Shown: piece by piece, positions 1 through 31,355 of the stretch
Layout: every line of letters begins with the position of its first letter
Position numbering within the stretch: the stretch's first letter is position 1
NCBI GenBank assembly: GCA_000830275.1
Contig: CP010424.1
Coordinates: 870,001-902,000, forward strand
Source of the DNA: an archaeon GW2011_AR10
Lineage (GTDB): Archaea; Iainarchaeota; Iainarchaeia; Iainarchaeales; GW2011-AR10
DNA length: 32,000 nt
Direction of reading: 5' to 3'
Notes under the pieces: generated by a model
Database searches by the model: none
Told to the model about the DNA's origin: nothing
Seen by the model: only the letters and a program-made list of their open reading frames with translations
Position numbers and translations under genes: made by a program

Positions 1-1923
1 CCTTGTGTCGCCTAGGAAGTCAGCATCATTGTAATTGAATATCACGTTGAACTGGTTAAAGCCTATTACAAGGCTCTGCAATGCCTCATTGTTTAACTCG
101 TTTAGTTCCGGCACAGAATTGGATGGGTCAATTACGAGCTTCAATTCGTTTACTCCGAAGAAATCGTTTGTGTCCTCAACAGAAAAATAGATTTCAGCTG
201 AGCCATCGGTTTCAAGCCCTGCAATTGTTACTGAGTCAACCAGCTGGTTGTTCAAAAGCAGGACAACATCAAAAGAGGCGGCATTGGAAACGCCTGCATT
301 CTTTACTGTTGCACTGACATTCAAGGGCTTTCCGACAACAGAAAACGAGGGAATGTTTTTTTGAGTGAAAATCAACTCTGAAAGAAGCACGCAGTCCTCG
401 TCAATCAAATCGTCATTGTCGTCATCCTTGAAATTACCGCAGATTTCAACGCACTTTATTCTGTGCGGTGGAATAACAGCATACCACGCATCAGTATATA
501 CCCTTGAACTGTTTCCTAAACCATCATAAGCATAAGTGTTTGAGTAAAAGAAAACCTCTCCTGAAACAGGGCCAATTGTGCCGGTAAACTTTTCCCCGCT
601 CTTTGACAGGAAAACAGTTTCATCTTTAGAGGTTCTTCCAAAGCGGTAAAACACTTTAGCTGTTTCAACTGTAGCTCCCTCAACAGGGGTTAGCTCAACA
701 TCAATAAAGAAAGCAGAATAATTGTCATTAGGCCTTGCCTCAAACTCCACGCTTTCAATCAGCTTAACTTTTTGGCTGGGAAGCGGGGGCCTGAATGCCT
801 CGTCCTCGTCAACAGGCAAAAAGAACTGCAGGTTAACAATGCTGCCGTCAATGTCCATAAAATTGTAGTACACTGTGTCTGCATCAGAAAATGAAGCATT
901 CAGGGTTTGCCCCTGCTTTACATTGGTGAAACTGAACTGCTGTGAGGAAGAGCCCCTTACAACAAAAACGTCAACAAACCCAATGCTGTCATCATTGTCA
1001 TACACGCTTGTTGCAACAAGCTGGCCGCTCTGGTTAACAATTTTAATCCATGAAAACTGGCTGCTTCCCTGCAGCAGAATCACTGGTGCATTTCCCTCAT
1101 TTGCCAAATTAATTGTTTCGCTAATTTCTTCGTTGATTATTGCTGAATCAAATGATGCTGCTTCAAACTGGATTGTTGGAGTCTCTGTCACAGTTGATGG
1201 GGCAGCTGAAGCAGGAACCCCGATTAAGGCGCAGGCTGCAACATCAGACGCAATTAAATGGTAAACTGTTGAGCCAAAGCCGGAGGTAACTTTTTTCCCA
1301 GAAGAATTGTAAACTGTTATGCCACTGTAAGGGTAAATTTTTCCGGTGAACGGCCCGGCTGTTGCAGTGAAAGTGTCGCCGTTTTTAATCATCGGGACAC
1401 TTGTTCTTGTTCCGCTTTTAGTGAAACTGTAAAAAAACACTGCCCTTTCAGCTGAAAAAGCGGAATTAATGTCAGCTGAAACATCAAGATAAAAGCTTCT
1501 GTTCCCCTCGGCAAGCCTTGGAGTGATTGTTTTGCCCAAAAACACTTTCGGCTTTGGCTGCACTGGAGTAGGCTCTTCCGGGGGCTGCGGGTTCAGAACA
1601 AAAATGAAGTACTGCAGGTTAACAATTGCCCCGTCATTGTCCATAAAATTGTAGTAAATGCTTGAATCAGAAGAAAATGCAACATCAAACACTGTTCCTT
1701 CTTCAACTCCTGAAAACTGGTAACGGTTAACTGAGCCGGAAGAAGCAATAAAAATGTCCACCAAACCAATGCTGCCGTCATCATCAAACACGTTTGTGGC
1801 CACAAGTTCTGGGCCCTGAACTTCAATCTGAATCTGTGAAAATTCTTGTGCATGCGCTGCACTAGGCAAAACCAAGGCCAAAAGCACTGCAATCAAAGCA
1901 TGTTTTATTGATTCTCTGTCCAT
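1..1923 (-). CDS. Secreted repeat protein with a CARDB-like domain. The 5' end is complete and the 3' end runs off the left window edge. It is not in the supplied ORF track.
   Basis: Hand translation of the minus strand. ATG at 1923..1921 gives MDRESIKHALIAVLLALVLPSAAHA/QEF (signal peptide with an AxA site), and the frame stays open for 641 codons to position 1. There are two ~262-aa internal repeats (nt offset 786, e.g. 826 vs 1612). A CVEICGNFKDDDDNDDLIDEDC motif is followed by a CARDB-like end motif, DPSNSVPELNELNNEA. The listed 99-aa ORF at 1593..1892 is in a different frame. Confidence 0.8.
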   Translation of the reverse strand, partial: MDRESIKHALIAVLLALVLPSAAHAQEFSQIQIEVQGPELVATNVFDDDGSIGLVDIFIASSGSVNRYQFSGVEEGTVFDVAFSSDSSIYYNFMDNDGAIVNLQYFIFVLNPQPPEEPTPVQPKPKVFLGKTITPRLAEGNRSFYLDVSADINSAFSAERAVFFYSFTKSGTRTSVPMIKNGDTFTATAGPFTGKIYPYSGITVYNSSGKKVTSGFGSTVYHLIASDVAACALIGVPASAAPSTVTETPTIQFEAASFDSAIINEEISETINLANEGNAPVILLQGSSQFSWIKIVNQSGQLVATSVYDNDDSIGFVDVFVVRGSSSQQFSFTNVKQGQTLNASFSDADTVYYNFMDIDGSIVNLQFFLPVDEDEAFRPPLPSQKVKLIESVEFEARPNDNYSAFFIDVELTPVEGATVETAKVFYRFGRTSKDETVFLSKSGEKFTGTIGPVSGEVFFYSNTYAYDGLGNSSRVYTDAWYAVIPPHRIKCVEICGNFKDDDNDDLIDEDCVLLSELIFTQKNIPSFSVVGKPLNVSATVKNAGVSNAASFDVVLLLNNQLVDSVTIAGLETDGSAEIYFSVEDTNDFFGVNELKLVIDPSNSVPELNELNNEALQSLVIGFNQFNVIFNYNDADFLGDTR

Positions 1924-4900
1924 ATCGTCCACCAAATCAAGCTCAAGGAATTTATTCTCTCGTAATGCATTCTCCTGATAAAGCTTGGCTCAGTCCACCA
2001 CTTAACTCCGACATCGTTTACTTGCCCGTAAGCAGGAACAAGGCCCCTTTCAATGACATCAAATTCATGCACTGAGTAAAGCGAATTGTTCCTGTCAATC
2101 CTGAGGTTGTTAGTTGAAAGGCTCGACAAATTGGATGAAAGCTTGCTCGTTAACAGCACTTCATCTTCCCTGAACTCGCTTAAAGAAATCAGCTGCAGCA
2201 CTGATAGGTTGGCTCCGGCAACAGAATACTTGTAAGTGTTGTTTTGCCCTGATGCTGTTGAATTCCAGATGCTAACCCACAATGGCTCGTTCTGCAGGAA
2301 CTCATCGTAAGAGTAAAACAGTGCCGGATCAACAACATAAGTTATTGAAAGAATTTCATTGTTGGATTCGTTGCTTTCAGGCACTTCATCAAGCGGGTCA
2401 ACTACAACCCTTACTTCATTTTCCCCTTCAAATGCTGCTGAGTCAACGGAGAAGATAAATGCAGCGTTGGAGTCAATTGCCAGCGCTTCAAACTGCCCGG
2501 AATCAACCAGTTCATTGTTGAAATAAAGCGATAATGTGAATGGGGTTGAAGCGTTATCTCCCGGGTTTTTCACCATTCCTGAAACCATAATGTTTTCGCC
2601 GCTGAAAACAGATGACGGAATGTCCACATTTTCCAGTGTTAGGTCAGACAAAAGCAGCTCGATGAATATTTCTTCAACGTTGTCTGCCTCATTCACTTCA
2701 CTAATGTCTCCCTCCGAGTCAACGAATACATAGAAGTTTGTTGCCTCCTGGAAATAAGCAGCAATTCCTTCCTCTTTCTCTGCAAGCCTGAATACTGTGC
2801 CTATTGGCGCCTCCCAAACAAACTGCAGGGTTAGCTCGCCGTCCTTGGAAACCGCATCAATAAAGGTTACTGCAACACCGTTCCCTGAAAGCGCGTCCTT
2901 GAAGAACTCAACGTAGAAGTCCTCTGACTTTGCGTAATCTGACTTAACTATAACAGTGAACTCAACGCTGATCAAGTCCGTTCCAACGTAGGTTGGAGAG
3001 CCAATTTCAATTGATTTAATGTAAAGGTTCGGCAGGTTGCAGCCCTCATCAACCAGGCCATCGCCGTCATCGTCAGCATTGTTGTTGCAGATTTCTGGGC
3101 CGGCAAAGTAAATTGAAACCTGCGTTTCGTTGTTGGATTCATTGCTTTCAGCAACCGCGCCTGAATCATCAGCTGTTAACACAAACTCTTTTGTCTGATA
3201 CAGCCAGCCACTCATTTGAGGATTGGAAGAATTGAAAGCAATGTTGAATACAAGGCTTACCGCGTCTCCTGCACCCAAACCGTTAACTGTCTTTGATTCA
3301 GAGTACTTGTCTGGCCCTGTTCCCTTCTCCTTCAACTTAACAGTAAAAGAAGCATCAGTTTCGCCGGCATTATTGTAAACCGTTACAACAACTAAGCCAG
3401 TTGAACCATCATTAATTACTGAGGAAGCACTGGCCGAAATCGTTAAATCTGGAACTGACTCGCATGGAATGCTGCAGCATGCATCCGAATCAGTTGCACT
3501 CAAAAGCGTGCCCGAGCAGGTTTCAAAGGCACTGCAAATGAAACCATTCTGCTCTGCACAGGTCTGGATAGGCAAGGAACAGTCAGCCGGGCAAGTGGAA
3601 GTGGTTTCACTTCCAGTGCACTGGCCGTCGCCGCAAACATCCGCTGGCGGGCAAACACCGCAGTCAGCGGAGCAAGTTGAACAGTCTTCTCCTGTTTCAC
3701 ATGAGGCATTTCCGCAGACAGGCCCTGCAGGAGCACAGTCGCTTGGACAGTTGTTTTTGTTCTCTCCCGCCTCACAGGAACCATTGCCGCAGACAGGGCC
3801 ACCGCCGCCTCCTGTCTTCCTGAAGGTAACGCTGGCTTCAGAGCCATTGTAGTCAAGGTTGTCTGTTGCCCAAACATAAATTGTGTGGTTGCCGTTGCTG
3901 TAGCCGCTAAACACGTAGCTTGTGTTGGTTGAATTGTTTATTGTTGCGCCGGAATCAAGCCTTAACCAGTATGTTTTCACTCCTGAGCCAGTGCCATCGC
4001 TTCCAGTGTACTGCACTGTAATGCTTGAAGATGTTGTGTCAGAACCACTTGTTGGGGAAGAAATTGTTACGGTTGGAGCAGTTGAATCATAAACTGTTGA
4101 GTCATTAACAGTGCTTGATTCGTTGCCTTCAGAGTCCTTCACTTTTACATAAACTGTTTTTGTTCCATCGCCGGTTGAGCATCCAGCTCCTGTTGTAATG
4201 TCAAAGCTCGAGTAGGTTGAAACAAAGGCAATCCAGCTGCCAAATGTTGAATTGTTGCAGCTGAAAGCCATGTGAGAGGCATCACTTCCAGCGGAAATTG
4301 TAAGGGTTGGAGTTGAATCATTTGTGTAGCCAGAAGTATCAGTAATTGCAATTGAACTTAAGCTCGGGGCATTAGTGTCTTGGCCTAACCCCCACTGCGA
4401 CAAGTGGTTCAAGTCAGCTGTAACCTTTAGAGTGGTCAAGTTAACGGTTGACGGATACTTCACCCACTCTCCAGCATTAGTATCATAGAAGTACATTGAA
4501 ACCTTGTTTATGTCGGAAGCAGTGCAGCCATACAACGGAGCACTCCCTAAAGCATTATAGCAGTTCAGGGCAGCAACATTAATGTCAAGGGTCAAACTTG
4601 GCTTTGTTGCACCGAACGAAGTGCTGCTCGGCAATTCAATGTCATAAGCTTCAAGCATTGTTCCGCGGGTGAAAGGCCTGTAGTTTGTGTTTGCATCAAT
4701 TGTGATATTGTTGTCTGCTCCAAACAATCCTGAAGGAAAAGTGAAGTTAAAGTCTCCCCAAGCACTGGATATCTGCTGGTTAATTCCTCTTCCATCAGTT
4801 GGCACCTTGAAAGGGCTCTGCGTGTCAACAAAGCACTGAATGGCAGTGGAATCGGCATAGTTTCCTAAAGCATCATAGGTTCTAACCTTGTAGAAGTAAA

Positions 4901-7900
4901 CACCATCAGTTGAGCCAGAGTCAGCTCCAAACTTGCTGCTGCCAGTCAAGTAGTCGGAGCTCGGGGCATCAACGCAGCCGTTAATGCACACAAAGCTGGA
5001 GCCGAACTTCTGCTTGCAGAACTGGTTTTCCAAAGTGTCTGGGCAGTTCTCTCCCGGAGAGCAGATGCTGTCACCGCAAACAATAGTTACAGAGGTTACC
5101 TGCCTGCAACCTGTTTGGCTTGTTTCCGGGTTGCCGCAAACATAGTTGTTTCCATAGTTGCCGTTGCCTGAAGTGCTTGATGCGCGGCAAGCAGCATTGT
5201 CATAAGAGCAAAACTCGCCTTGCCCGCAAAAATTGTCACCGCATTTCAAGCAATCATTCTTGCAGCTGGTGTTGTCTTCGGTTGACTCACAAACCCCGTC
5301 ATTGTCACAAGTGCTTCCCACAACACCATCGCAGTCCTGCGGGCAAGTAGAAACTGTTTCGGTTCCACTGCACCAGCCGTCAACATAGCAGCCGGAACCG
5401 CTTCCGCTTGCAAAGCTCTGGCAGTCAGCGGAACAGCTCTGCGGGTTTTCATTGTAATTGCACGTGCCATTGCTGTTGCAGACACAGTCAATGCCTGCTG
5501 CCTCAAACCACTCGCAGAACCCATCACTTGTTGGAATGTTTGCTTGAGAACAATCAGCAGCACAATTGGTGGAGGTTTCACCAAAATTGCATATTCCGTT
5601 GCCGCAAATGCTGGAGTCCGGGCTTGATGAGCCGCCCTGAGCATAGTAGCCTTCTGTTTTCTGCACGCAGCCATTAACGCACCAGTAAGCTCCTGAAGTG
5701 TTATACCTTGCATCGCAGGCAGAGTCATCAGCTGCACAGTTTTCTCCAACAGAGCAAACACTGTCACCGCAGGTAATTGAAACAGAGCCGCTTGTTGCCT
5801 GGCAGCCGTTGCTGCAGCTGTAACCTTTAGGGCAGTCAAAGCTGTCTTCCGGGCAGAACTCTCCTTGAGTGCACCAGCCATCACCACAATTGCCGGTGAA
5901 ACCATAGCTTGAATAAAAGCTGGTTGTGTCGAAGGCATAGCTTGTGTAAGAATAGTTAAAGTAGTTGTCATCAGCATTATTCTGTTCGTTCAAAGTATTG
6001 TAGTTTGTTCCATCGACTGAAACCATTATCTCGTAGTGGTGTAATCCAGCATTGCTTGAGGGAGCAGTCCACTGCAAGTCAATGTTGGTGCCGTCAACAA
6101 CGCTTGGGCAGGCACTTAGGGTAACAGGCTGAATTGAAGCTTCCTGCAAAACATACTCTGTTTTTGGAATTTCATTGTTGCCGGCTCCGGAAACAGAGTA
6201 GAATTGTATGGCAAAGTTTCCGTCCTTCGAGAAAAGGAAGTTAACATCAAACACGTTGAAGTCAACCCCTGCTGTGCCGGTGTAAAAGCCGTCAGTTGCA
6301 TAAGTTGTTGGGTTGAATGAAATTGTGCTTGCTGGATTGGAGTCAAGCCTGAACCTTGTTGCACCTGAAGGACAACCGCTTCCTCCAGGAGGAGAGTAGT
6401 GAATCTTGAAATCATACAATGACATTGTGTAGAAAGAGCCACTCGCAGTTGACCTGTCCTGGAAGCGCACATTGAACTGGATGTACTGGTTTTCTGTGCC
6501 TATGGGGGAGTTAAATGAAGTGGTTTCGCTTGACCAAGAACCCCAACTGCTTCCATTGCTTGAAGTCCTGTATTTCACGAAAATGTCTTTGCCCTCAAAA
6601 GGATACTTCTGCGCATAATAATCGTAGCCGCTCCAGTTGACGGATGAGCCAGCATTGACAGTAATTGTAAGGTTAGCGTCCCTAATTCCGCTCTTCAATT
6701 GCACATTGCTGTTTATTACTTCAAGCTGGGCGGAATTGAAGTTGATTGTAACGCCTGATGGAGGGGTTGTTGTCCAGTGCGCCTGAGTGTAAATCAACAC
6801 ACTAGTGAAGGCTGATGTGCCTGTGCTGCAGGTAAAGTGAACGTTTGCATCCGTTTTCTGCCAGAACTTGTTGATATCGGATTGAGTGAAAGGAGCTACA
6901 TTCTCGTTAATGTAAGTGTCCGAAACAACCCCTGAGTAGAACTCTCCATCATATGCAACGCATTTAACTGTAGCAGTTCCTTCAGTGTTGAGGCCCTGCC
7001 CAACACAGTTGGCTCCAGCATAACCAGCAGAAGAAATTCCGGTTCGAGAACAAAATGATGCAGCGCCTGCAATCTGGGCTCCACTATCAAATGGAGGAGT
7101 GTCAGAGCAGTAAAAGTTCAGGTTGTCATTGTCTGGATCAGTTAAGCCTGCTGCAGTAACCTTAATGTCTTTATTGAGGCTTGCTGAGGAAACATTCAGG
7201 TCAATTGAAGTAATTGAAGGAGCAGCATTCCAGCTTGTTGTGAAGGAAACATCCAAATTGTTTGCGGAAGAGTTGCCGTTGCCTACCCCATCAACACAGG
7301 AAACATACCTGTTGATTGCCTGGCCGTTTGTGCTGATTCCTGTGAAGTCGCACCTCCACTGGCTTGTTCCGGAATTGAAAGAGCAGGCAGTGCCTGTTCC
7401 TACTGAATAATTCACATCAGTGGCATACCACCTGCAAGCTGAAACAGTTGAGCCTGCATCTGAAGCAGTAAACAAGAGGTTTGCATCACTGTCGTTGATT
7501 GTGTCAGCGTAAGGAGCAGTTGTGTCGCCTTCAATGCTGACAATGCTGAAAGAGCCGGGAGCAGTTGCATCACAGGTGAAGGAACCGCTAATGTAGTTTG
7601 CTGCAGCAGCCTCATTCAAGGAATCGAAGAGGAAAACATACCAGTTATGGCTGTCATTGTCACCTGCTTTGGAGTACTGGCAGGTTGGGTTGCTGCTTGA
7701 AGAAGTGTCAGAACATAAGCCGTTGCCGACAGAGCAGCCGGAAGAGGTTGCATCAGTTGCCTTGCAGGCATAAAACTTTAGGGTTTGCGAGTCAGCATCG
7801 GAGGCAGTGCTAGTGAACTTAATGTCTGCCGGGCATTTGATTGTGCCGGAAACGTTTTCATCAGCTGCTGTCAGGACAGGCAAGCGGTTAATGTTAATTG

Positions 7901-10900: not shown

Positions 10901-13900
10901 CAATGTAAACCGTGTCGCTCGTGCCCCAACTGGCAGCTAGATAGCGGTAAAACACAATAGAAGTAATCGCATTTGTGCCAGGTCCGCCCTGGTCAACAAT
11001 TACATTCGTAAAACAATACTTTGCCCAGGAGCTTGTCGGAACCGGAAGGCCGAAATTCATCCACCCGCTATCGCTTCCCTCCCCTGTGTACACGTATATC
11101 AGGACTTTACGGCTGGCGTCATCATCCGACTTCTTCAAATCAACACAAATCCTGAATGTTCTCCCTAAAGTGCCAGAAATTGTCGATAAATTTTGCTGCA
11201 CAAAAGCATAATCATCAGTACCGTTTCCGCTGCTCAGGGAATACCCCCCTGTACTGGAATCCAGATCAATGACGCCATTGGTAATGTTGGTCCAGCCTGT
11301 TGTGCCGTTCTCAAACCCAGGATTTTTCACAAGATTGCTTTCGTTGCCGAAATCATCAAGGCTAGAAACAACAAAGTTGTAGTCGGTTCCTGCATCAGTT
11401 GCCGTTCCATAATTTACTGTCAACTGCGAGGCTGAATCCGCACCAATGCTGGAAATGGTTACAGCGCTTGGAAGAGCAGTATCAGTTGCGGCAGTATCGG
11501 AAAAAGAATTAGTGCGAACCGGCACCGTTACCTTGATGTTGTCAAAAGTTGAAAGGTCAGAGTCAAAAAAACCAATGTATGGCTTTAAGTCTCCCTCCGT
11601 GCTGTAATTGGAGTCAAAAAGCAGGACATCATTAATGAAATATTTTGCTCCCTTTGCTTTCAAAACAATTTTCCAGTGATAGTTTTTGTTGATGTCTATT
11701 GCACTTGAAACCGTGCTCCTAAGAATAGCATCCTCATAAATTTGGGCCTGGGTGTTAATGAAATTAATTACGTGAACCCCGTCCAACACGTTAACTGCCC
11801 CGGAATTGTCAGTGAAGCCAGCCCAAACCTGCACTTGAGCAGAGGAATTAAAGTCTCCCTCAAAAGTTGTTCCCGAAATTCTTGCAAGGGCAGTATTGTA
11901 GGTTATGCCTGTTTCCCCGAATATGCCTGAACCCCTTCCAAAAAGTTTTCCGGCTGTTGCAGAAATGCTTCCAGCTCCAGTATCGGTTACAGTCCAGTTG
12001 CTTGGAAGCGTTGTTCCGCTAAAATCATTGAAGTCACCGCTTCCAACAGGATCAAATGTTGTTCCATTGTTAGGGCTTCTTTCAGCAGCAAAATAATCGA
12101 AGAGCTTGTACTTGTAAACTGTGGTTGCACTGCAATTAAATGCGTAAATGTAGTTTGACTTGTTTCCGCCAATGCCCTCAATGTCAGCTACTTGCCCTGA
12201 AACATCAATTGTTTTAACGAGGTAAGGCGCTTCATCCCATTCACCAGTGCCGGCAGGCCAGCTGGTTACATCAATTACAGCAATTTTGGTGTTTGCAGTA
12301 ATGTCTGAACCAATGCCTGCATAAAGGTAGCCGTTGCTGTATTCCAAGCCCTCACCATAGTTTCCATCAGCAACCTTGAAATAGCCTGCAGCAGTAATGC
12401 TTGTCTGGTTGATTTTGTACCTTGTTACCACATTGCTTCTGCTTCCGGAAGTTGTGCCAGTGTAACCTGAAAGGTCGGCATTGCAGTAAAGGTAGTTGCC
12501 GTCAGTTGCAATGCCCAAACACTCGCCGTCAGTCAACAGCTTTCCTGTCCATGCTCCGCCACAGCTTGCTGGAGGGCTTGCGCCAGAACAGCTTGTCCAA
12601 GTTGCACCATTGCTTGAAACAATCCACTTGTTCACATCAAGCGTTGTCCAGTCCTGCGAAAAGAACACATTGTTTGTTGAATCAGCATTTCCATAATATG
12701 CGAGGCCGGTGTAAAAACTGGTATTGGAAATGGAACTCAAATAGTTGAAGTCAGAAGTATACCTTCCAACTATGGCATTGGTGATAGTGAACCAATAGTC
12801 TTGATTCCAACCTGTTTCAGTTGCTGGAGCAAAAGTCACGCCATAGCACCATCCAGTAGTTGCTGAAGCTGTTTCGCTTCCCACATAGTCGCCGAACTCG
12901 TTGCTTGTAAAGGTTAAGTTAACCCTGTTGTTGGAGGCATCGCCTGTTGCAGTCAAAGCAGCCGGCACTGAACTGTTCCTGTCAGGAACTATAATTGCTG
13001 CATCATTTGAATATGGGCCGTTGCTGGCTCCGGTAAAAGCCCTAACCCTGTAAACCAGGGAATTGTTGTCCCCGACATTGTTGTCATTGAAAGCCAGAAC
13101 ATCTGCAGCTGTTGCAAAAATCTGGAAATAGCTGCTGCCTGCCACTTTCCTCTCAATCTTGAAGCCGTCTTCCCCTGCAACATTGGTCCAAGAGAGCACG
13201 ACTCCCCCAAGATTCGAGCCAAGAGCAAAAAGGGTGTTGGCGTCAGCTGAAAGCACTGGGCCATCAATAGCAGTTGTTCCGCACACCTGAGAGGAAACAG
13301 TTGAATTGTTGTCAGCGTTGTCGGTTGAAAGCACGGTGAAACAGTACTGCGTTCCCGGGCTTAACCCTGTTATAGTGGTTGGAGTTCCTGCTAAAACATT
13401 GTCCAAGTCACTGCCATCATTTGCCCCAGAAGAACAGCTGCCACCGCTCTCGCAGTCAAGCAAATACTGTTTTAAACCAGAAGTAACAGTGGCATAATTG
13501 TAATTTCCACTCCTGTATATTTGTTCTACTTCAGCAGCAGTTAAGACCCTGTTCCACACCGCCACATCATCAATCTTCCCGACATGCGAGCCATTGCCGA
13601 AAATCCCGCCAATCTGGAACGGCTGGTTCGTGGACCTTAAGCTGTTTCCATCGTAAATGGCAATGCTGTCACTGTCCCTCAACACACCATTCACGTAAAG
13701 CCTCTGGAAACCATCCCTGTCAGCAGTGAAAGCAACGTGATACCATCTGTTTGCGTCAATCCCTGATGCTTGGCTTGCAATTGCGGGAGTACCAAAGTCA
13801 AGGAGCAACTGCACATTGTTGGCCGGGTTGGTCCTTATTTCCCACCCATAGTTGTTTGCGGTTGAATCCCTGTTGGAAATGGGCCTCTTAAGAGTGACAC

Positions 13901-16900
13901 TGGGGTCATTCCAGTAAACCCACAGGGAAGCAGAGAAATCTGTTAGCGCTTGATTGATGTCCCCTGCACGAATTATGTCAGTGCCGTTGAACACGTAAGC
14001 CCCGCTGCCTAAGCCACCGTTTTCAGTCCATACAACACCAGCCTCAACATTTCCATCCCGCCCATTCAAACTTGAGTCATAGGCAGTTGTGCCAAGGCCA
14101 TCCTCGAACTTCCAGTAGCCCTGAATATCGGTTGAATTAACATCGAATGAGTTCCCGTAACTGTCGAAAGCGTTGATGAGGTAATTGTAATCAGTTCCAT
14201 TGTCGCTTGGAGCAGTCCAGGAAACATTCAAGGAGGAAGTGGCAGGATTGTTAACAGTCAGGCCTGTTGGCGTGTTCGGGTTAGCACCATCAGTTGCGGC
14301 GGTATCAGCAAACGTGTTTGTGTCAATTGGCACTATGATTTTGAAATTGTCATAGTTTGCAATAGCAACACTAGTGTGTGTTACATAAGGCTTCAAATTG
14401 CTTTCAGTGCTGTAATCAGAATTGTAAACCAGCTTGTCATTTATATAGTAGTAGGCTCCCTGGTCTTTCAGAACAATTTTCCAGCGATAGATTGTGGTGC
14501 CATTCCAGCTTCCACCAGGTATTCTTGGGTTATTATCCTCATAAATATGTATTATTCCGCCGCCGCCAGAAGCGCTAAAGAAAATAGCGTGAACTCCATC
14601 TACAAAACCCACGCCAGCACCATTGTCCTTAAAGCCAACCATTGCATAAGTAGCAGTGGGATCAGAAGCATTGAAATCCCCTTCAAAAGTCACGCCTGCA
14701 GCACGGGCCAAAGCCGTATTGTAAGTGAAGGCTGTTTCACCCCATGTGCCCGTACCAATTATGTTCAGCATTCCGCTTTGGGTAACGCTCCCCGAACCTG
14801 TATCGGTTACGGTCCAGTCGCTTGGAAGAGTTGTTCCATTGAAATCAGCGGAATCACCGTTGATTGGAGTGAAGGAACTTCCACTATCAGTGCTCTTCTC
14901 CAAAGCATACTTTACCGTGCCAATGTTGTAAAGGTTCTTTATGGAGGTGGCTGAAAGCACGGTGTTGAAAACCATTACCTCGTCTATGGTTCCGGCAATT
15001 TCTTGGTGTTCGATACACGCGACGTCAGTGCAGTAGGACCTCGCGCCTATACTGAATCTTGCATTAGCGGTCGTAGGTGATAGTGTGAGAGTATTATAGT
15101 CAATAACCGTTGTTTCTTCTAGCCCATCAACATAAATTTTCAGGCCGCTTGCTGCACTCGAGCCATTGTAGGTTACCGCTATGTGGTGCCACTTGTTGTC
15201 ATTAACCTTGTAAAGGGTGCCGTGCTCTTTTATCCCATTGGTGATTTCAGTATCGAGCAAGTGCGCCTCGACATAGCCCCCCTGCAAAAACATGTCATAG
15301 CCCTTGTAAGAGGGGTTGGAATCCATTTTTGACACGAGCGCTGCGCCATTAGCTGTTCCCTTATACCAGGCCGATAAAGTGTAGGAATCTGTTCTGTCAA
15401 AATTATAGGCTGATGATGACGTAATCCTGATGTTGTCTCCGACACCATCCAAAGTAATAGCGTTCCCTATTCTGCCTTTCGTGAAAGAAGCATTGTAATA
15501 TAGAGTTCCATCATTCCCGCTCCCGCTGCTGTCATATGCTGTTGAACCTGATTCTTCATCAAGCCGCCAGTAGCCAATGAGGTTGCTGCCAAAGTATGAA
15601 TTGGCTGCCGAGTTGTCGTCGCTTGCAGTCCAGTTCAAATCCGCATGCGCAGAAGCGCCGGCAGTGGAGGAAACAACAAAATTCTGTGGAAGCGATGGGC
15701 CGCTCCTGTCAGTGGTTACGTTGGCATCAACGCTTGAGTTCGTGTCAGCCAAAACTCCGATGGTTGACACCTTGTAGTAGTAAGTGGTGTTGTCCAGGAG
15801 ACCAATTTCATCAAAAGAGGTGGTGTTTGCCGCGAGCGTGCCGGAAGCATTGGTGAAAGGCCCGATGGAATTATTTGCAGACCTGTACACAATGTAACCC
15901 TGCTCGCCGGTTGCATCAGCCCAAGTTACTTTCGCACCGCCAAACCTCGAGTTCCTGTGGAGGAGATTGTTTGCGTCAAGAGAGCTGAGAGCTGCTGGGG
16001 CTCCAGTAACATCATAATTGACAACCAGGGTTGGGGCAACCTGGGAGTTCTGGTCATAGGAATACCAGCCCCACCTGCTGGCCGGAGAAACTTCATTTGC
16101 TGCAACTGCTTTAAGGCCAATGTTAAAGTAGTCGGATGGAAGCTGGTTATCCAGGTCTGTGGCAGCGGTTGAACCAAGGCTAACAGTTGCTGTGTCACCA
16201 ATGGCCTCATTCCAGCCCGTGGTACTCATATATAAAGTGCCGGAACCAATGTTGCTGTAAACGGTTGAGGCAGTGCCGGCACAATCCACATTACTGGTGC
16301 CAAGCCTCCGTGCCTCAATGGTCGGGTTTCCGGAATTAAGGATAAGTCCGCCTGTGAGCTTGAGGCTCACGCCGAGAATCGGTGCGGCATCCGGAATGGA
16401 GCTTGTGCTGAATTTCAGGAAACTTCTTCTAACACTAGGATTGAATAAACTACTATACCCTGCAGAAACAGTGTTTAAATTATTGTTACAAGAATAAGTT
16501 ATATCATCAGGATTATAATCGATGTATCCATCGTTGGCGCTTGCCGCTGTGGTTATGTTAACAATGGGGTCGATTGCGATGGGGTAAACTCTATTCTCAT
16601 TGGTGAGCCAAGCGTACGGAACACTAGTGTACAGGAAAATGCTGCTGCCCTGCTTTTCAATCGTGTAAGTGAGGTTGATGAAACTGTTGTTGTTTGTTGG
16701 TTTTCCCTCGGCATCGAAATCGCTTGCGGCATCGCTTGCATAAGCAATGGCAACAGGAATGTACAGCTCCGGGGAGCCGGAAGAAGCGTCGTTCAGGGTC
16801 AGCTGCTGTGAAGTGGTTATGGTTGAACCCTTGTATGGCTTGCCGTCCACATAAAGCAAGAGGTTGTTGGGAAGGTTGAGCTTTTCCTTGAGCTGGAGAA

Positions 16901-18320
16901 CTGGGGCAAGGCCTAGATTGGCGTTAGGAACAGGCACAGATTTGTTGGAATCGATTGTGATTGTTTTGCTTATGCCGCTAAAACCATACCTGTATTCCAG
17001 GTCAAACCCTTCGGCAAAAACATCTGAATATTTTACCCTGTTTCCGGTGACCGAGTCGGTTCCCTTATTGGAGCCTGCGCTCCCAATGAGCTGGGTGTTT
17101 CCATTGCCAGAGTAAAGCAGTTCTGAAGCGCTGAACGCGAGGGAAAAATCCCCTTTCTCGACCCTCACTGTATCTTCCTGCGTGAAGTCATCCTTCCAGT
17201 AAACTTTCAAATCGGATTCCTCAACCTCGTAATCATAATTTGATCTTGCCTGGAGCTTTTGCGCAACGCCTGCAGCGATTCCCTGCCTTGCAGCTTCAGC
17301 AAGCTTTTTTGCGCTGTCAAGTGGCCTTATCTGCCTGTCAATTCTTTTAAAAGCGCCGTTCTCATCAACGTAATTCACTCTCTCAATGTGGATGTAGGCA
17401 AGCCTTTGGTCTGCGTCAAGGCAGTAAATGTTTGCGTTCTCTTGCCTTTCGCATGGCTGCTCGTTTGGCCTCTCAATTTCCTCAAAAGTGTTGAGGTCAA
17501 ACCGCAAAGCATTAACATCAACCGGCCCTGGAACAGCTCTGGAAGGCAAAGTGTAGGTTACCTCAATGGATGGCTTCTGGAGGCTTGGAACAATTGCGGC
17601 AGAAGAGTAAAAGCGGAACAGTGCTTGGTCTTCATCCGCCCCAATCAAACCAATTGAAAAGTAGTCTTGGTTTAATTGCTGTTGCAGGTCAGCTGCTGCT
17701 TGTGCCCCAAGAATAACGACATGGTTGCCTGCAATAGTTCCCTGCAGGCCTTCAGCGTATTTCGGGAAAGAAGAAATGTTTTCAAACAATTGCTGCGAAT
17801 TGTAAGCATTGGTTATCTGCCTGCCGCTAAAGGACGTTACGCTCCACGTCTGGAAACCGAAGTCAGCAGAGTAAGGTGTTTCAACGAAAAGGTTGAGCTT
17901 TACCTGCGAAACATTTGCATCATCAGGAATCTGCGAAGTGTCAAAGTCAAGGAAACCTCTGTAAAAAACATCAGTGCTTCTTGCTGTTTCCCCACCAAGC
18001 TGAATGAACTCTGAGGAAACTTTTAGGTAAAGGGTTCTGCCGTTCCATCGCACAAAGCCATCATACTTTGGTGAAATTGTGCCAGCATCAAAGAATGCCT
18101 GCTGCCCGAATTTTGGCGGAACAAACAGTTTTGTGGTGTAAGAGCCGTCAGCGTTTTTTATTGTTTTGGAAAAACTTGCTGCTGTTTGCTCCTGCGTAAA
18201 AACAGCGGAAAAAAGTGCAAAAACCGCCAGAAGAGCAATTACGGATAGGAAAAAATTTCTTGAAAAAATTTTCTTTGTTCCCCACTCAAAACTGCGCATG
18301 CGCTTCCCTAACCCCTTCAA
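1905..18320 (-). CDS. Giant (5,471 aa) secreted multidomain surface or adhesin-like protein
   Basis: A single uninterrupted 16.4-kb ORF. The N-terminus has a basic region followed by a hydrophobic helix (NFFLSVIALLAVFALFSAVF). Recognisable modules are LamG/ConA-like lectin domains, FN3-like, CBM4_9-like, Ig-like modules ending ..D.(A/T)GN.., Cys-rich CGxGxC repeats and CARDB-like domains. The longest ORF starts at TTG 18320; ATG at 18299 (MRSFEWGTKK..) is an equally plausible start. Confidence 0.95.
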   Translation of the reverse strand: MKGLGKRMRSFEWGTKKIFSRNFFLSVIALLAVFALFSAVFTQEQTAASFSKTIKNADGSYTTKLFVPPKFGQQAFFDAGTISPKYDGFVRWNGRTLYLKVSSEFIQLGGETARSTDVFYRGFLDFDTSQIPDDANVSQVKLNLFVETPYSADFGFQTWSVTSFSGRQITNAYNSQQLFENISSFPKYAEGLQGTIAGNHVVILGAQAAADLQQQLNQDYFSIGLIGADEDQALFRFYSSAAIVPSLQKPSIEVTYTLPSRAVPGPVDVNALRFDLNTFEEIERPNEQPCERQENANIYCLDADQRLAYIHIERVNYVDENGAFKRIDRQIRPLDSAKKLAEAARQGIAAGVAQKLQARSNYDYEVEESDLKVYWKDDFTQEDTVRVEKGDFSLAFSASELLYSGNGNTQLIGSAGSNKGTDSVTGNRVKYSDVFAEGFDLEYRYGFSGISKTITIDSNKSVPVPNANLGLAPVLQLKEKLNLPNNLLLYVDGKPYKGSTITTSQQLTLNDASSGSPELYIPVAIAYASDAASDFDAEGKPTNNNSFINLTYTIEKQGSSIFLYTSVPYAWLTNENRVYPIAIDPIVNITTAASANDGYIDYNPDDITYSCNNNLNTVSAGYSSLFNPSVRRSFLKFSTSSIPDAAPILGVSLKLTGGLILNSGNPTIEARRLGTSNVDCAGTASTVYSNIGSGTLYMSTTGWNEAIGDTATVSLGSTAATDLDNQLPSDYFNIGLKAVAANEVSPASRWGWYSYDQNSQVAPTLVVNYDVTGAPAALSSLDANNLLHRNSRFGGAKVTWADATGEQGYIVYRSANNSIGPFTNASGTLAANTTSFDEIGLLDNTTYYYKVSTIGVLADTNSSVDANVTTDRSGPSLPQNFVVSSTAGASAHADLNWTASDDNSAANSYFGSNLIGYWRLDEESGSTAYDSSGSGNDGTLYYNASFTKGRIGNAITLDGVGDNIRITSSSAYNFDRTDSYTLSAWYKGTANGAALVSKMDSNPSYKGYDMFLQGGYVEAHLLDTEITNGIKEHGTLYKVNDNKWHHIAVTYNGSSAASGLKIYVDGLEETTVIDYNTLTLSPTTANARFSIGARSYCTDVACIEHQEIAGTIDEVMVFNTVLSATSIKNLYNIGTVKYALEKSTDSGSSFTPINGDSADFNGTTLPSDWTVTDTGSGSVTQSGMLNIIGTGTWGETAFTYNTALARAAGVTFEGDFNASDPTATYAMVGFKDNGAGVGFVDGVHAIFFSASGGGGIIHIYEDNNPRIPGGSWNGTTIYRWKIVLKDQGAYYYINDKLVYNSDYSTESNLKPYVTHTSVAIANYDNFKIIVPIDTNTFADTAATDGANPNTPTGLTVNNPATSSLNVSWTAPSDNGTDYNYLINAFDSYGNSFDVNSTDIQGYWKFEDGLGTTAYDSSLNGRDGNVEAGVVWTENGGLGSGAYVFNGTDIIRAGDINQALTDFSASLWVYWNDPSVTLKRPISNRDSTANNYGWEIRTNPANNVQLLLDFGTPAIASQASGIDANRWYHVAFTADRDGFQRLYVNGVLRDSDSIAIYDGNSLRSTNQPFQIGGIFGNGSHVGKIDDVAVWNRVLTAAEVEQIYRSGNYNYATVTSGLKQYLLDCESGGSCSSGANDGSDLDNVLAGTPTTITGLSPGTQYCFTVLSTDNADNNSTVSSQVCGTTAIDGPVLSADANTLFALGSNLGGVVLSWTNVAGEDGFKIERKVAGSSYFQIFATAADVLAFNDNNVGDNNSLVYRVRAFTGASNGPYSNDAAIIVPDRNSSVPAALTATGDASNNRVNLTFTSNEFGDYVGSETASATTGWCYGVTFAPATETGWNQDYWFTITNAIVGRYTSDFNYLSSISNTSFYTGLAYYGNADSTNNVFFSQDWTTLDVNKWIVSSNGATWTSCSGASPPASCGGAWTGKLLTDGECLGIATDGNYLYCNADLSGYTGTTSGSRSNVVTRYKINQTSITAAGYFKVADGNYGEGLEYSNGYLYAGIGSDITANTKIAVIDVTSWPAGTGEWDEAPYLVKTIDVSGQVADIEGIGGNKSNYIYAFNCSATTVYKYKLFDYFAAERSPNNGTTFDPVGSGDFNDFSGTTLPSNWTVTDTGAGSISATAGKLFGRGSGIFGETGITYNTALARISGTTFEGDFNSSAQVQVWAGFTDNSGAVNVLDGVHVINFINTQAQIYEDAILRSTVSSAIDINKNYHWKIVLKAKGAKYFINDVLLFDSNYSTEGDLKPYIGFFDSDLSTFDNIKVTVPVRTNSFSDTAATDTALPSAVTISSIGADSASQLTVNYGTATDAGTDYNFVVSSLDDFGNESNLVKNPGFENGTTGWTNITNGVIDLDSSTGGYSLSSGNGTDDYAFVQQNLSTISGTLGRTFRICVDLKKSDDDASRKVLIYVYTGEGSDSGWMNFGLPVPTSSWAKYCFTNVIVDQGGPGTNAITSIVFYRYLAASWGTSDTVYIDNVHFEEVKGATTTTGLHATQPYNVSGTGTGAGWGAASPRAVTGLSTNTQYCYTVQSKDAASNSSAASASSCKYTLAAVPSAPTVGNAQPTSLDVTINVNGNPAATEFAIQCSSANCSGNPWVQANGSLGASEIWQTNANWGTKTVTGLSGHTQYCFKVKSRNGDNTETALSSETCSSSVNSAPTIAVTAPNNTGISISQVNGDYNIVFEVQDAQDDDLNAQIWYSTSAGGKQNSLVSSLNLVTGACGQDPNFTTTKACSWLWNTTGINGTFYIDVNVWDSYAGDDIDSSDNSFEVDNTAPTVTLQGPSDTSTTNDVDPDFTAAPSETVSNCYLQVDDASNFLSQFSDLNGLDVGADCDYGGTEYTTNFSNGTTIYWRMKATDDTGNVGSYGTAFSFTVDTSGPDISIADLNGDTAAAYWDSTNDSGTDLNINGAEAGVTCKWDTTSKAYYDLLSNNCNAASGNFIRCDFGAITQTASATRYYACKDSLDNNTTVQSVSFGVDWTVPTTSDDSSTAIAAPTYTVTLTEADNVSNSTDTTSYYCKDTNNSCTPTTSIDNGGTASFDASNRGLNYLRYYSVDAAGNTQSTASKTININQLPGFTSATADIGNSNPTIKGGTSITITTVASDADATQTLKLVICKSTGVSGTDCDGGAPDTYCSSTGSASNPSCGWTAESDDTTHNWYAYIFNSLNEPAPGNYKTGSYTTDSTAPTVTLQTPADASSTNDVDPDFTANPSETVSNCYLQVDDASNFLSQFSDLNGLDVGADCDYGGTEYTTNFSNGTTIYWRMKATDSVGNVGSYGTAFSFTVDTSGPDISIADLNGDTAAAYWDSTNDSGTDLVINNGEAGVTCKWDTANVAYASLASNCTTTSQAATCDFGALTQAASYTRYYACADSLGNATSTQSVSFGVDWTVPTTSDDSSTAIAAPNYSVTITEADNVSAAAAITTSFCSYTANNCTPSTVIDNGGQVTFSDSNRGVNYLRYSSTDAAGNVQSTASKTININRLPVLTAADENVSGTIKCPADIKFTSTASDADSQTLKFYACKATDATSSGCSVGNGLCSDTSSSSNPTCQYSKAGDNDSHNWYVFLFDSLNEAAAANYISGSFTCDATAPGSFSIVSIEGDTTAPYADTINDSDANLLFTASDAGSTVSACRWYATDVNYSVGTGTACSFNSGTSQWRCDFTGISTNGQAINRYVSCVDGVGNGNSSANNLDVSFTTSWNAAPSITSIDLNVSSASLNKDIKVTAAGLTDPDNDNLNFYCSDTPPFDSGAQIAGAASFCSRTGISSAGYAGANCVGQGLNTEGTATVKCVAYDGEFYSGVVSDTYINENVAPFTQSDINKFWQKTDANVHFTCSTGTSAFTSVLIYTQAHWTTTPPSGVTINFNSAQLEVINSNVQLKSGIRDANLTITVNAGSSVNWSGYDYYAQKYPFEGKDIFVKYRTSSNGSSWGSWSSETTSFNSPIGTENQYIQFNVRFQDRSTASGSFYTMSLYDFKIHYSPPGGSGCPSGATRFRLDSNPASTISFNPTTYATDGFYTGTAGVDFNVFDVNFLFSKDGNFAIQFYSVSGAGNNEIPKTEYVLQEASIQPVTLSACPSVVDGTNIDLQWTAPSSNAGLHHYEIMVSVDGTNYNTLNEQNNADDNYFNYSYTSYAFDTTSFYSSYGFTGNCGDGWCTQGEFCPEDSFDCPKGYSCSNGCQATSGSVSITCGDSVCSVGENCAADDSACDARYNTSGAYWCVNGCVQKTEGYYAQGGSSSPDSSICGNGICNFGETSTNCAADCSQANIPTSDGFCEWFEAAGIDCVCNSNGTCNYNENPQSCSADCQSFASGSGSGCYVDGWCSGTETVSTCPQDCDGVVGSTCDNDGVCESTEDNTSCKNDCLKCGDNFCGQGEFCSYDNAACRASSTSGNGNYGNNYVCGNPETSQTGCRQVTSVTIVCGDSICSPGENCPDTLENQFCKQKFGSSFVCINGCVDAPSSDYLTGSSKFGADSGSTDGVYFYKVRTYDALGNYADSTAIQCFVDTQSPFKVPTDGRGINQQISSAWGDFNFTFPSGLFGADNNITIDANTNYRPFTRGTMLEAYDIELPSSTSFGATKPSLTLDINVAALNCYNALGSAPLYGCTASDINKVSMYFYDTNAGEWVKYPSTVNLTTLKVTADLNHLSQWGLGQDTNAPSLSSIAITDTSGYTNDSTPTLTISAGSDASHMAFSCNNSTFGSWIAFVSTYSSFDITTGAGCSTGDGTKTVYVKVKDSEGNESSTVNDSTVYDSTAPTVTISSPTSGSDTTSSSITVQYTGSDGTGSGVKTYWLRLDSGATINNSTNTSYVFSGYSNGNHTIYVWATDNLDYNGSEASVTFRKTGGGGGPVCGNGSCEAGENKNNCPSDCAPAGPVCGNASCETGEDCSTCSADCGVCPPADVCGDGQCTGSETTSTCPADCSLPIQTCAEQNGFICSAFETCSGTLLSATDSDACCSIPCESVPDLTISASASSVINDGSTGLVVVTVYNNAGETDASFTVKLKEKGTGPDKYSESKTVNGLGAGDAVSLVFNIAFNSSNPQMSGWLYQTKEFVLTADDSGAVAESNESNNETQVSIYFAGPEICNNNADDDGDGLVDEGCNLPNLYIKSIEIGSPTYVGTDLISVEFTVIVKSDYAKSEDFYVEFFKDALSGNGVAVTFIDAVSKDGELTLQFVWEAPIGTVFRLAEKEEGIAAYFQEATNFYVFVDSEGDISEVNEADNVEEIFIELLLSDLTLENVDIPSSVFSGENIMVSGMVKNPGDNASTPFTLSLYFNNELVDSGQFEALAIDSNAAFIFSVDSAAFEGENEVRVVVDPLDEVPESNESNNEILSITYVVDPALFYSYDEFLQNEPLWVSIWNSTASGQNNTYKYSVAGANLSVLQLISLSEFREDEVLLTSKLSSNLSSLSTNNLRIDRNNSLYSVHEFDVIERGLVPAYGQVNDVGVKWWTEPSFIRRMHYERINSLSLIWWTIWTENQ
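2335..3450 (-). other. Three CARDB-like domains with an interposed CNNNADDDGDGLVDEGC motif
   Basis: Each unit ends with the CARDB-type motif: DDSGAVAESNESNNE, DSEGDISEVNEADNV, DPLDEVPESNESNNE. The acidic CxxxxDDDGDGLVDEGC segment at about 3040..3095 resembles MopE/TSP3-like metal-binding repeats. Confidence 0.7.
3455..3815 (-). repeat. Cys-rich repeat array 2 plus a C-x4-GF[IL]C...CC-x3-C motif
   Basis: VCGNGSCEAGENKNNCPSDC, VCGNASCETGEDCSTCSADCGVC and VCGDGQCTGSETTSTCPADC, followed by TCAEQNGFICSAFETCSGTLLSATDSDACCSIPC. Confidence 0.8.
4965..5905 (-). repeat. Cys-rich repeat array 1 (CG[DN]GxCxxGExxxxCxxDC-type units)
   Basis: NCGDGWCTQGEFCPEDSFDCP.., TCGDSVCSVGENCAADDSACD.., ICGNGICNFGETSTNCAADCS.., CYVDGWCSGTETVSTCPQDCD.., TCDNDGVCESTEDNTSCKNDC.., KCGDNFCGQGEFCSYDNAAC.., VCGDSICSPGENCPD.. 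Confidence 0.8.
7565..10004 (-). repeat. Tandem in-frame duplication of a 411-aa (1,233-nt) multi-Ig-like unit inside the giant gene
   Basis: Unit 1 is 8772..10004 and unit 2 is about 7565..8771. Both begin APTVTLQ (agc at 10002-10004 and 8769-8771). The core 8401..8760 vs 9634..9993 is nearly identical at nt level, including a 113-nt exact run from 8401/9634. The flanks have diverged. Confidence 0.9.
10875..11340 (-). other. CBM4_9-like carbohydrate-binding module of the giant protein
   Basis: The N-terminal NLVKNPGFENGTTGWTN and C-terminal VYIDNVHFEEV resemble the NPGFE.G...W ... D.v.l pattern of CBM_4_9 jelly-roll modules. Confidence 0.55.
11481..12065 (-). repeat. About 195-aa lectin-like module, copy A2 (paralogous to 14293..14880)
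   Basis: FDPVGSGDFNDFSGTTLPSNWTVTDTGAGS...TYNTALARISGTTFEGDFN...YHWKIVLKAKGAKYFINDVLLFDSNYSTEGDLKPY...NIKVTVPVRTNSFSDTAATD. Confidence 0.8.
13500..14130 (-). other. LamG / concanavalin-A-like lectin domain 2 of the giant protein
   Basis: IQGYWKFEDGLGTTAYDSSLNGRDGNV...FSASLWVYW...RWYHVAFTADRDGFQRLYVNG...GKIDDVAVWNRVLTAAEVEQIY follows the same pattern as domain 1. Confidence 0.75.
14293..14880 (-). repeat. About 195-aa lectin-like module, copy A1 (paralogous to 11481..12065)
   Basis: FTPINGDSADFNGTTLPSDWTVTDTGSGS...TYNTALARAAGVTFEGDFN...YRWKIVLKDQGAYYYINDKLVYNSDYSTESNLKPY...NFKIIVPIDTNTFADTAATD. It aligns in frame with copy A2 at a 2,820-nt offset. The shared nt string tatcggttac lies at 14801 vs 11981. 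Confidence 0.8.
14925..15590 (-). other. LamG / concanavalin-A-like lectin domain 1 of the giant protein
   Basis: LIGYWRLDEESGSTAYDSSGSGNDG...WHHIAVTYNG...LKIYVDG...IDEVMVFNTVLSATSIKNLY matches the Laminin_G_3-type pattern (GYW.lDE..G....D.SG.GN.G ... W.hva.ty ... lyvDG ... iDev.i.n.aLs..ei..ly). Confidence 0.75.
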
Positions 18321-31346: not shown

Positions 31347-31355
31347 GTGTTTTGA

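Follow-up and report, generated by a model that had tools for sequence, protein, structure and literature searches.

A stretch of 32,000 nucleotides (nt) from the archaeon GW2011_AR10 (contig CP010424.1, positions 870,001 to 902,000; the window in what follows) carries, on its minus strand, a single gene coding for a mosaic protein of 5,464 amino acids (aa), here called the giant. We lean, by a modest measure, towards seeing in it a Sec-exported adhesin fibre, non-enzymatic and binding glycans, that would dock through its tail on a partner sitting in the membrane. A more specific proposal, put forward tentatively, is that the giant and the gene overlapping its end make a two-component archaeal surface system, where an anchorless fibre of about 0.6 MDa would be held, via a C-terminal domain named MHYERIN here, on a CARDB membrane protein. 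Going by the names of the homologues, the source is a Diapherotrites/Iainarchaeota archaeon of the DPANN group: NCBI names the nearest homologues of the giant "[Candidatus Diapherotrites archaeon]" (e.g. P0005), or "[archaeon]" for P0002, with 'LamG-like jellyroll fold domain-containing protein' as product name. Scans of GTDB species representatives, with the N-terminus of the giant and with PfkB, gave no match.

A conserved C-terminal domain and its overlapping partner gene

The features that bear directly on export and anchoring are these:

1905..18299, minus strand: coding sequence of the giant (5,464 aa), its start being an ATG at 18299; stop codon at 1905-1907
18186..18272, minus strand: hydrophobic segment (aa 17-45), the sole one in the giant, with K/R residues before it (Kyte-Doolittle scan)
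1908..2333, minus strand: C-terminal MHYERIN domain (aa 5330-5471), with homologues at extreme C-termini elsewhere
1..1923, minus strand: 5' part of the partner gene, 641 codons before the window ends; its start, an ATG at 1923, lies within the giant gene and gives a 19-nt overlap

The original prediction, made from the letters of the window, described a single open reading frame (ORF) of 16.4 kb and 5,471 codons. This frame is indeed open on the minus strand (window 1905..18320), without any internal stop, and the same product is found in other assemblies. Its mechanical start is a TTG at 18320 (residues are numbered in this frame), and the ATG at codon 8 (18299) is the start chosen by gene callers elsewhere, giving a product that begins MRSFEWGTKKIFSRNFFLSVIALLAVFALFSAVFTQEQ. 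Some 5,470 open codons at 45-50% guanine plus cytosine make a chance origin impossible. The deduced protein (581 kDa) is acidic, with a pI of 4.17, and rich in S, T, G, A, N and D. Its N-terminal hydrophobic segment, with a core of about 20 residues (aa 22-42), is probably a Sec signal peptide that cleavage would remove. At the other end, no hydrophobic segment was found (the Kyte-Doolittle maximum is 1.23 over the last 200 windows, for a threshold of 1.6), and the terminus, ...LSLIWWTIWTENQ, does not show the PGF motif, hydrophobic helix and basic tail of a PGF-CTERM/archaeosortase signal. The presence of an N-terminal signal or anchor and the absence of a C-terminal anchor, both claimed at the outset, are therefore right for the giant itself, but the claim overlooked an apparently translationally coupled gene for a membrane protein, always next to the tail.

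This tail had been described as 140 residues, rich in Trp and of unknown type. It is Trp-rich (7 Trp in 142 aa), and Arg-rich as well; what had been overlooked is that it makes a conserved, family-specific domain, present in seven other loci (L017/L021, L020, L022, L023, L024, L025 and L026). Queried with the last 147 aa, a word index returned one match, P0001, with 46% identity, which forms the end of a large, scaffold-gapped gene on L017. A scan of metagenomes with the resulting two-sequence alignment found six further loci, and a profile search added P0160 on L026. The domain ends large open frames in L017/L021, L020, L022, L024 and L025, and belongs to short end-fragments in L023 and L026. 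In the longer contigs these frames reach at least 2,804, 2,516, 3,444 and 993 aa, figures that are minima since the frames run to the edge of the contig or flank. In the tail-bearing loci a CARDB domain immediately precedes the module. Seven tails have seventeen invariant positions in common, MHYERIN.L...WW among them, and third codon positions vary beneath the invariant residues, which points to selection on the protein rather than on an RNA element. Neither Pfam nor NCBIfam has a model for the domain.

Two other roles were considered for this end of the gene and set aside. Conservation as an RNA or translation-coupling element was rejected because of the varying third codon positions just mentioned, and an amphipathic helix lying at the membrane interface is not supported by a hydrophobic moment of just 0.28-0.38.

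The ATG of the partner gene overlaps the stop of the giant in each of the eight loci with sequence beyond the tail, by 1 nt (TAATG), 4 nt (ATGA) or 19-37 nt; L023 ends too early to reach it. Such an overlap of start and stop reads as a signature of translational coupling. From the part present in the window we read a signal peptide, two DDDxxIxxVD..YNFxDxDG modules and a CARDB domain; the gene is complete on JGI contig Ga0209211_10000144, where it continues to the left of the window. Complete copies, available in five loci, are 881-931 aa long: they comprise a signal peptide, two DDDxxIxxVD...YNFxDxDG modules, a CxxxCxNxxDDDxDGxxDExC motif, CARDB and a CarboxypepD_reg-like sandwich, and they end in two or three hydrophobic segments followed by a basic C-terminal tail. 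Pfam and NCBIfam models do not cover this family. GAPDH comes after the partner in the five loci whose sequence reaches that far, and an ORF of 404-407 aa found after GAPDH in the longer loci is taken as phosphoglycerate kinase, from its sequence.

The tail-bearing relatives also tell which parts of the giant are stable. Its C-terminal 1,200-2,200 aa are collinear with them (40% identity with L020 over aa 4239-5471; 30% with L024 over aa 3236-5469), and the modules upstream of this collinear part are shuffled or absent. Among the other homologues, P0002 matches aa 267-1390 of the giant, then skips to aa 2189-2612, and P0003 matches aa 267-948, then skips to aa 1690-1981. The protein is thus a true mosaic, as had been proposed, its homologues sharing modules in differing orders: a fixed base is combined with a variable, lectin-rich N-terminal part, and this arrangement fits a conserved base proximal to the cell and a variable distal tip.

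A plausible course of events may be drawn from these features. The signal peptide would send the giant out through Sec. Its C-terminal domain would dock non-covalently on the ectodomain of the co-translated partner, the two or three C-terminal hydrophobic segments of which would keep the fibre anchored in the membrane. Lectin-type modules of the variable N-terminal part would be displayed far out, at an estimated 100-200 nm at full extension, where they would bind glycans, plausibly acidic polysaccharides, on the envelope of another cell or in extracellular matrix. Export, as well as the division into conserved base and variable tip, is read from sequence features and family assignments; docking and glycan binding are suggested by conserved gene order and similarity of folds.

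The opposite orientation deserves to be weighed here. The giant could be anchored by its own N-terminal transmembrane segment, left uncleaved, with the C-terminal domain as a distal tip (a contact or insertion module, for example) and the downstream protein as an accessory. The length of the hydrophobic core is compatible with such an anchor, and a Trp- and Arg-rich tail with a strongly conserved terminal stretch could suit a tip. Yet variable lectins at the membrane with a conserved tip would be the reverse of what is generally known of fibrous adhesins, the terminal helix is only weakly amphipathic, and the homologues have ordinary N-termini resembling signal peptides. We consider this orientation improbable, and keep docking by the tail as the preferred one.

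Modules predicted to bind ligands

The N-terminal 2,500 aa make the predicted ligand-binding part of the protein, with a DNRLRE/CBM96-like head, two LamG domains, a CBM4_9 module (CBM standing for carbohydrate-binding module) and a duplicated module. From the N-terminus onwards, with the FN3-type pair that follows, they are:

17556..18008, minus strand: DNRLRE-like domain 1 (aa 105-255), motif FLDFDTSQIPDD; NCBIfam NF033679, 29.8 bits (E 5.5e-7) for a cut-off of 34, thus below it
16521..17525, minus strand: unannotated beta-rich head module (aa 266-600), ending YPIAIDP (exhaustive search)
15966..16523, minus strand: DNRLRE-like domain 2 (aa 600-785), with a putative CBM96-like fold
14940..15440, minus strand: LamG_3 domain 1 (aa 961-1127); PF13385, 69.7 bits for a cut-off of 27.6
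14316..14909, minus strand: copy 1 of a duplicated 195-aa module (aa 1138-1335), an internal repeat
13527..13985, minus strand: LamG_3 domain 2 (aa 1446-1598); PF13385, 84 bits for a cut-off of 27.6
12093..12938, minus strand: segment first read as propeller-like (aa 1795-2076), homologous to the C-terminus of P0003
11508..12092, minus strand: copy 2 of the duplicated 195-aa module (aa 2077-2271), an internal repeat
11010..11339, minus strand: CBM_4_9 (aa 2328-2437); PF02018, 27.9 bits for a cut-off of 25.9
10290..10814, minus strand: FN3-type pair (aa 2503-2677), an internal repeat; PF09294, 32.3 bits for a cut-off of 21

Two DNRLRE-like domains had been anticipated at the N-terminus, and the two repeat each other, with aa 121-237 corresponding to aa 632-750. 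The first one scores below the cut-off of the NCBIfam DNRLRE_dom model (NF033679), and the second has no match to it. An exhaustive HMMER search of 1.84 billion representative sequences with aa 46-800 found 358 relatives at E <= 1e-3. Among the 150 relatives listed, at least 85 span most of the unannotated head module (aa 355-610), and a subset has this module followed by a DNRLRE-like domain, as in the giant. A neighbour of homologue P0004 is itself annotated as a DNRLRE domain-containing protein. The DNRLRE domain was first defined in surface proteins of Methanosarcina, which are also archaeal (PMC2447325), and CBM96, a related module that binds alginate, has a known structure, PDB 7VBO (PMC9971899).

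The AlphaFold2 model of aa 266-790, built on an alignment of 47 sequences, is of good quality (pLDDT 86.5, pTM 0.86). Compared with the PDB by Foldseek, a domain of about 180 aa in this model resembles a chondroitin-sulfate-binding CBM (8wab, E 1.1e-6, TM-score 0.70) and the alginate-binding CBM96 (7vbo, E 5.7e-5, TM-score 0.64); the remainder of the head has no convincing fold match there. The matched part, with its CBM96-type fold, would be aa 600-785, that is, DNRLRE-like domain 2, an assignment we infer because the Foldseek output gives no query range. A profile of 20 DNRLRE-like domains retrieved no CBM96 entry from the PDB sequences, so that membership in CBM96 rests on fold and not on sequence. 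Among predicted viral structures, the whole head (aa 266-790) resembles an uncharacterised siphovirus protein (E 3e-18, TM-score 0.59 normalised on the query), and the 180-aa domain is similar to a "CBM96 domain" protein of a phage (E 8e-8) and to several phage tail proteins. This likeness to phage tail and receptor-binding proteins is one of fold only, with 9-19% identity, and the gene of the giant is cellular, with no other phage genes nearby.

Both expected LamG domains lie well above the Pfam cut-off, totalling 134 bits, and each belongs to a larger internal repeat made of FN3 and LamG (aa 854-1139 resembles aa 1328-1610). The CBM4_9-like module is confirmed as a marginal match, spanning positions 1-114 of the 136 of the profile. 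FN3-like units are supported by PF09294; PF00041 reaches 18-21 bits per 400-aa tile for a cut-off of 25, and adds up to 34.9 bits across a segment of 2,000 aa, with no single stretch above the cut-off alone, and a PDB 'Fn3-like protein' (3mpc) matched at E 0.003. The module of about 195 aa had been called lectin-like. Its duplication is clear, with 48% identity between the copies, but not its lectin fold: it has no Pfam match, and hhalign comparisons with LamG, CBM4_9 and DNRLRE-like domains all give less than 1% probability. The beta-propeller-like segment, first placed at aa ~1930-2075, could not be substantiated either. It has no Pfam match at E <= 1 and no detectable internal repeat, and comparisons by hhalign with LamG, CBM4_9, DNRLRE-like domains and the propeller-like region of a neighbouring protein all remain below 1% probability.

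The remaining 3,000 aa or so make a predicted stalk of Ig-like, FN3, Cys-rich and CARDB modules, with the C-terminal third conserved and collinear:

7278..10025, minus strand: Ig-like run (aa 2766-3681) marked by Y..D..GN motifs; two 411-aa units in tandem lie within it
4911..5933, minus strand: Cys-rich array 1 (aa 4130-4470), from the Cys histogram, internal repeats and CGNGxCxxGE motif
3456..3803, minus strand: Cys-rich array 2 (aa 4840-4955), from the Cys histogram
3123..3452, minus strand: CARDB (aa 4957-5066); PF07705, 33.3 bits for a cut-off of 22.7
2676..3035, minus strand: possible divergent CARDB, in the middle (aa 5096-5215); its terminal motif alone matches the flanking copies
2355..2648, minus strand: CARDB (aa 5225-5322); PF07705, 61.4 bits for a cut-off of 22.7

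The long Ig-like run is as first described; its matches to Big_13, Big_3_3 and OmpL47 are weak, and the tandem 411-aa copies reach up to 98% protein identity locally. The two Cys-rich arrays are likewise present (about 43 Cys in aa 4100-4500 and 20 in aa 4800-5000), and repeats were found inside both. Of three expected CARDB-like domains two are secure; the middle one shares the terminal motif, but no stretch of it matches Pfam, and BLAST against both flanking copies is not significant.

Just before CARDB, the giant (3036..3110, aa ~5077-5100) and its partner (~420..500) share a C...C.N..DDD.DG..DE.C motif, and the motif-plus-CARDB units of the two proteins are paralogous, with 35-39% identity. 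The motif resembles what we take to be a calcium- or metal-binding one.

As to enzymatic activity, the whole protein was cut into 400-aa tiles scored against the Pfam and NCBIfam models, and no catalytic domain appeared. When each half of the giant was compared with PDB sequences, nothing beyond marginal FN3 and CARDB-like matches came up. N-glycosylation sequons are not enriched, 103 being observed for 93 +/- 9 expected from composition.

Integrity of the gene

A frame of this size naturally raises the question of an artefact, chimeric join, collapsed repeats or pseudogene, and some details might seem to invite it. A MEGAHIT contig (L014, from ERZ909592) crosses, at L014 1-900, between the two 411-aa units and loses one of them (about 1.23 kb, window 8077..10000), either as a real variant in copy number or through repeat collapse. 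A copy in an NCBI metagenome-assembled genome (L016; GCA_013332025.1, DUFG01000017.1) has seven indels in 12 kb, with a giant called at 5,436 aa and a nearby 337-aa gene, described below, broken into pieces of 99 and 173 aa, which looks like lower consensus quality rather than biology. Finally, one JGI contig ends within the giant gene. The counterevidence is much heavier. The identical 5,464-aa product is called in L001, L002 and L005-L012, in at least eight metagenome assemblies of Rifle (Colorado) groundwater (PRJNA268031, PRJNA292723, several from ENA and JGI) that differ in samples and assemblers. JGI contig Ga0209211_10000144 (153 kb) agrees with the window at 100% identity, and the DNA of the giant gene is at least 99.7% identical in all assemblies compared (over about 9 kb of the gene). 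The tandem 411-aa unit is its only long DNA repeat, and since the best 300-nt stretch is 92% identical between copies, assemblers can resolve it. The frame is kept even in the L014 variant, and long stretches of the giant align collinearly with distant homologues. We take the ORF, on these comparisons of sequences, to be real and intact, and give very little credit to an artefact.

What the fibre may bind

The original prediction saw in the giant a plausible cell-cell attachment factor of host-dependent archaea. A secreted mosaic, rich in modules from carbohydrate-binding families and encoded by a DPANN genome, is indeed what we find, but host dependence is an assumption: Iainarchaeota/Diapherotrites have been reported to be the DPANN lineage with enough anabolism for a possibly free-living life (PMC10936187), so that cell-cell attachment would be no more than a possible role.

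If the organism were an obligate episymbiont, the giant could be its host-attachment factor, with the envelope of a host archaeon or bacterium as ligand. Several features are in line with this role: the DPANN ancestry, the resemblance of the head and its CBM96-like domain to phage proteins that recognise cell surfaces, and a pilin/VWA surface locus close to the giant gene. The same role has been proposed for LamG, CARDB and Ig-type proteins of Mia14, Undinarchaeota and Nanohaloarchaeota (PMC5498576, PMC7414124, PMC10266531). Against it stands the metabolic endowment of the lineage; moreover, sequence cannot tell a host ligand from any other glycan, and the sampled variants are so close to one another (at least 99.7% identity) that there is no sign of a diversification driven by hosts. 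We hold it as a possible, not a probable, specification of the adhesin.

Slightly less likely still, in our view, is a fibre that serves a free-living cell for adhesion to matrix, particles or biofilm, or for capture of polysaccharides, its ligands being extracellular acidic polysaccharides or detritus of the aquifer. The lifestyle suggested for the lineage would be in keeping with it, as would the likeness of the CBM96-like fold to alginate- and chondroitin-sulfate-binding modules (PMC9971899) and the presence of CBM_4_9 and LamG modules. However, neither the giant nor the neighbouring genes that were checked carry a glycoside hydrolase or lyase domain, and similarity of fold does not fix the specificity for a ligand.

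To be sure, the general reading of a glycan-binding fibre docked by its tail must itself face a series of difficulties. The N-terminal segment of about 20 residues could be an uncleaved signal-anchor, in which case the lectin modules would lie beside the membrane and the partner would not be needed as an anchor. Should Iainarchaeota be free-living, there would possibly be no host to bind. At the level of sequence, the DNRLRE/CBM96 assignment is below threshold or absent, and about half of the giant, including aa 1138-1335, 1795-2076, 3800-4130 and 4470-4660, is without family assignment, leaving room for a cryptic enzymatic or pore-forming module. The tail is known from eight loci only, several of them possibly close relatives, and an AlphaFold2 model of the last CARDB domain with the tail gave no usable fold (pLDDT 38), the alignment of three sequences being too shallow. 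Gene adjacency is the sole pointer to an interaction of the tail with the partner, a family that may also occur without a giant.

The neighbourhood

The region, taken over its 40 kb, has the look of a cell-surface island. The locus of P0002 (L018) is syntenic with the window, with PfkB, PIN, a transglutaminase-like gene, small pilin-like genes and a VWA/LVIVD protein. In the window, 30354..31718 (plus strand), continued in L001 at 15020-20444, encodes small proteins with class III signals (KAQVAAEYLIV..., KGQVEVEAV...); signal-like starts of this archaeal, pilin-type class are seen on the small ORFs at 30930 and 31356, and a Class_IIIsignal protein also precedes P0004. This pilin-like cluster, syntenic in L018, is followed outside the window by a 944-aa protein with LVIVD, VWA and CARDB.

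A second large secreted protein is encoded at 20973..26558 (minus strand) by an ORF of 1,861 codons, called at 1,853 aa. It is very acidic and Cys-rich, with some six repeats displaying D(P/Q)EPHP and YYSVD..GN; one stretch is propeller-like, the C-terminal region (WNLVSVP...) is Trp-rich, and the protein has no Pfam family. The gene after it (19896..20909, minus strand) codes for a product of 337 aa in which a signal peptide, 22 consecutive Gly and a hydrophobic segment at the C-terminus are seen. As read from the sequences, the pair has the same layout as the giant and its partner, a big secreted protein with a small anchored one, and may follow the same logic of anchoring. Both genes are missing from the syntenic L018.

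Small genes of toxin-antitoxin type lie just upstream of the 5' end of the giant, at 18486..18707 and 19127..19627 (plus strand; DUF2283 and PIN); the orthologous place in L018 (9084-9616) has DUF4258 and MazE-like genes, with PemK and PIN farther off. At 28912..29823 (minus strand) a 303-aa protein combines an N-terminal coiled coil (with a CHAD-like match) and a transglutaminase-like or CEP76-peptidase-like domain, and it is kept beside PfkB in L018. To the right of PfkB, from about 28071 onward, identity with the window stops (at ~28070) in contigs from JGI 3300025309 and ERZ909578 (L003, L004, L013). There the NYN gene, the transglutaminase-like gene and the pilin cluster are replaced by glycosyltransferase, methyltransferase and DegT genes, a replacement at the level of strains.

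Known systems and what the locus adds

The giant belongs to a recognised class, that of the LamG-rich giant surface proteins of DPANN archaea. The three reports cited above describe LamG-like jelly-roll and CARDB proteins, often beside pilin loci, as abundant in DPANN generally and probably involved in interaction with hosts (PMC5498576, PMC7414124, PMC10266531). Those of Mia14 (Micrarchaeota), of Undinarchaeales (arCOG07813) and of Ca. Nanohalococcus (SVXNc_08xx) are, in the same sources, secreted, multi-domain and non-enzymatic like the giant, with prominent LamG and CARDB (and Ig-rich parts), near loci resembling type IV pilins, and a role in cell contact has been proposed for them too. This lowers the novelty of the case. 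A report on Huberarchaea likewise notes large Cys-rich surface proteins (PMC6792436). The giant differs from the LamG/CARDB/Ig-rich proteins in being much larger (5,464 aa), in its specific head unit, where the unannotated module is joined to a DNRLRE/CBM96-like domain, and in its MHYERIN domain with an invariably coupled membrane-protein gene. We found no mention of these last three elements in the available text of the three reports, and, as far as these sources go, the MHYERIN domain and its obligate gene partner look new.

Other comparisons are instructive. The SPEARE giants of Nanohaloarchaeota (5,998-9,409 aa) recall the giant, as described in PMC10266531, by their signal peptide, by many successive Ig-like and FN3-like modules and by a proposed role in host binding. 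Those of 8,880-9,409 aa are larger than the giant. They are, in the same text, cell-bound, with a C-terminal membrane span, a VirB4/TraG-like ATPase domain facing the cytosol and an adjacent gene for a secretion ATPase, whereas the giant has no C-terminal hydrophobic segment and no match to an ATPase family, its downstream gene coding for a CARDB membrane protein. With DNRLRE surface proteins and CBM96 the likeness is in fold (7vbo and 8wab), the DNRLRE score being 29.8 bits where 34 are needed, and the domains of the giant are not joined to a lyase or disaggregatase.

Giant fibrous adhesins of bacteria (RTX proteins such as MpIBP, LapA and SiiE, or LPXTG proteins) use a long Ig-like stalk to present lectin-type modules far from the cell; they are acidic, and calcium-binding motifs are common among them. 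By contrast, tiling of the giant against Pfam gave no match to RTX/HemolysinCabind, type I secretion, LPXTG or sortase models, the protein is archaeal, and its anchoring is proposed to go through a separate membrane protein.

Contacts of DPANN archaea with cells and surfaces are mostly inferred from lists of domains. The present locus is a concrete, testable unit, offering a conserved gene pair, a family-specific C-terminal domain as a handle for searches and a head that is modelled with confidence. Should the docking model fail, the giant would be one more large LamG-rich surface protein of archaea, ordinary for its group. Should docking be true, it would account for the way an anchorless protein of 0.6 MDa is retained on the cell. 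And if the two-component reading as a whole were to hold, it would add a new mounting of giant adhesins in archaea, one that does without signals of the archaeosortase type, and would provide a marker for such fibres in Iainarchaeota, a lineage whose free-living or symbiotic lifestyle is still debated.

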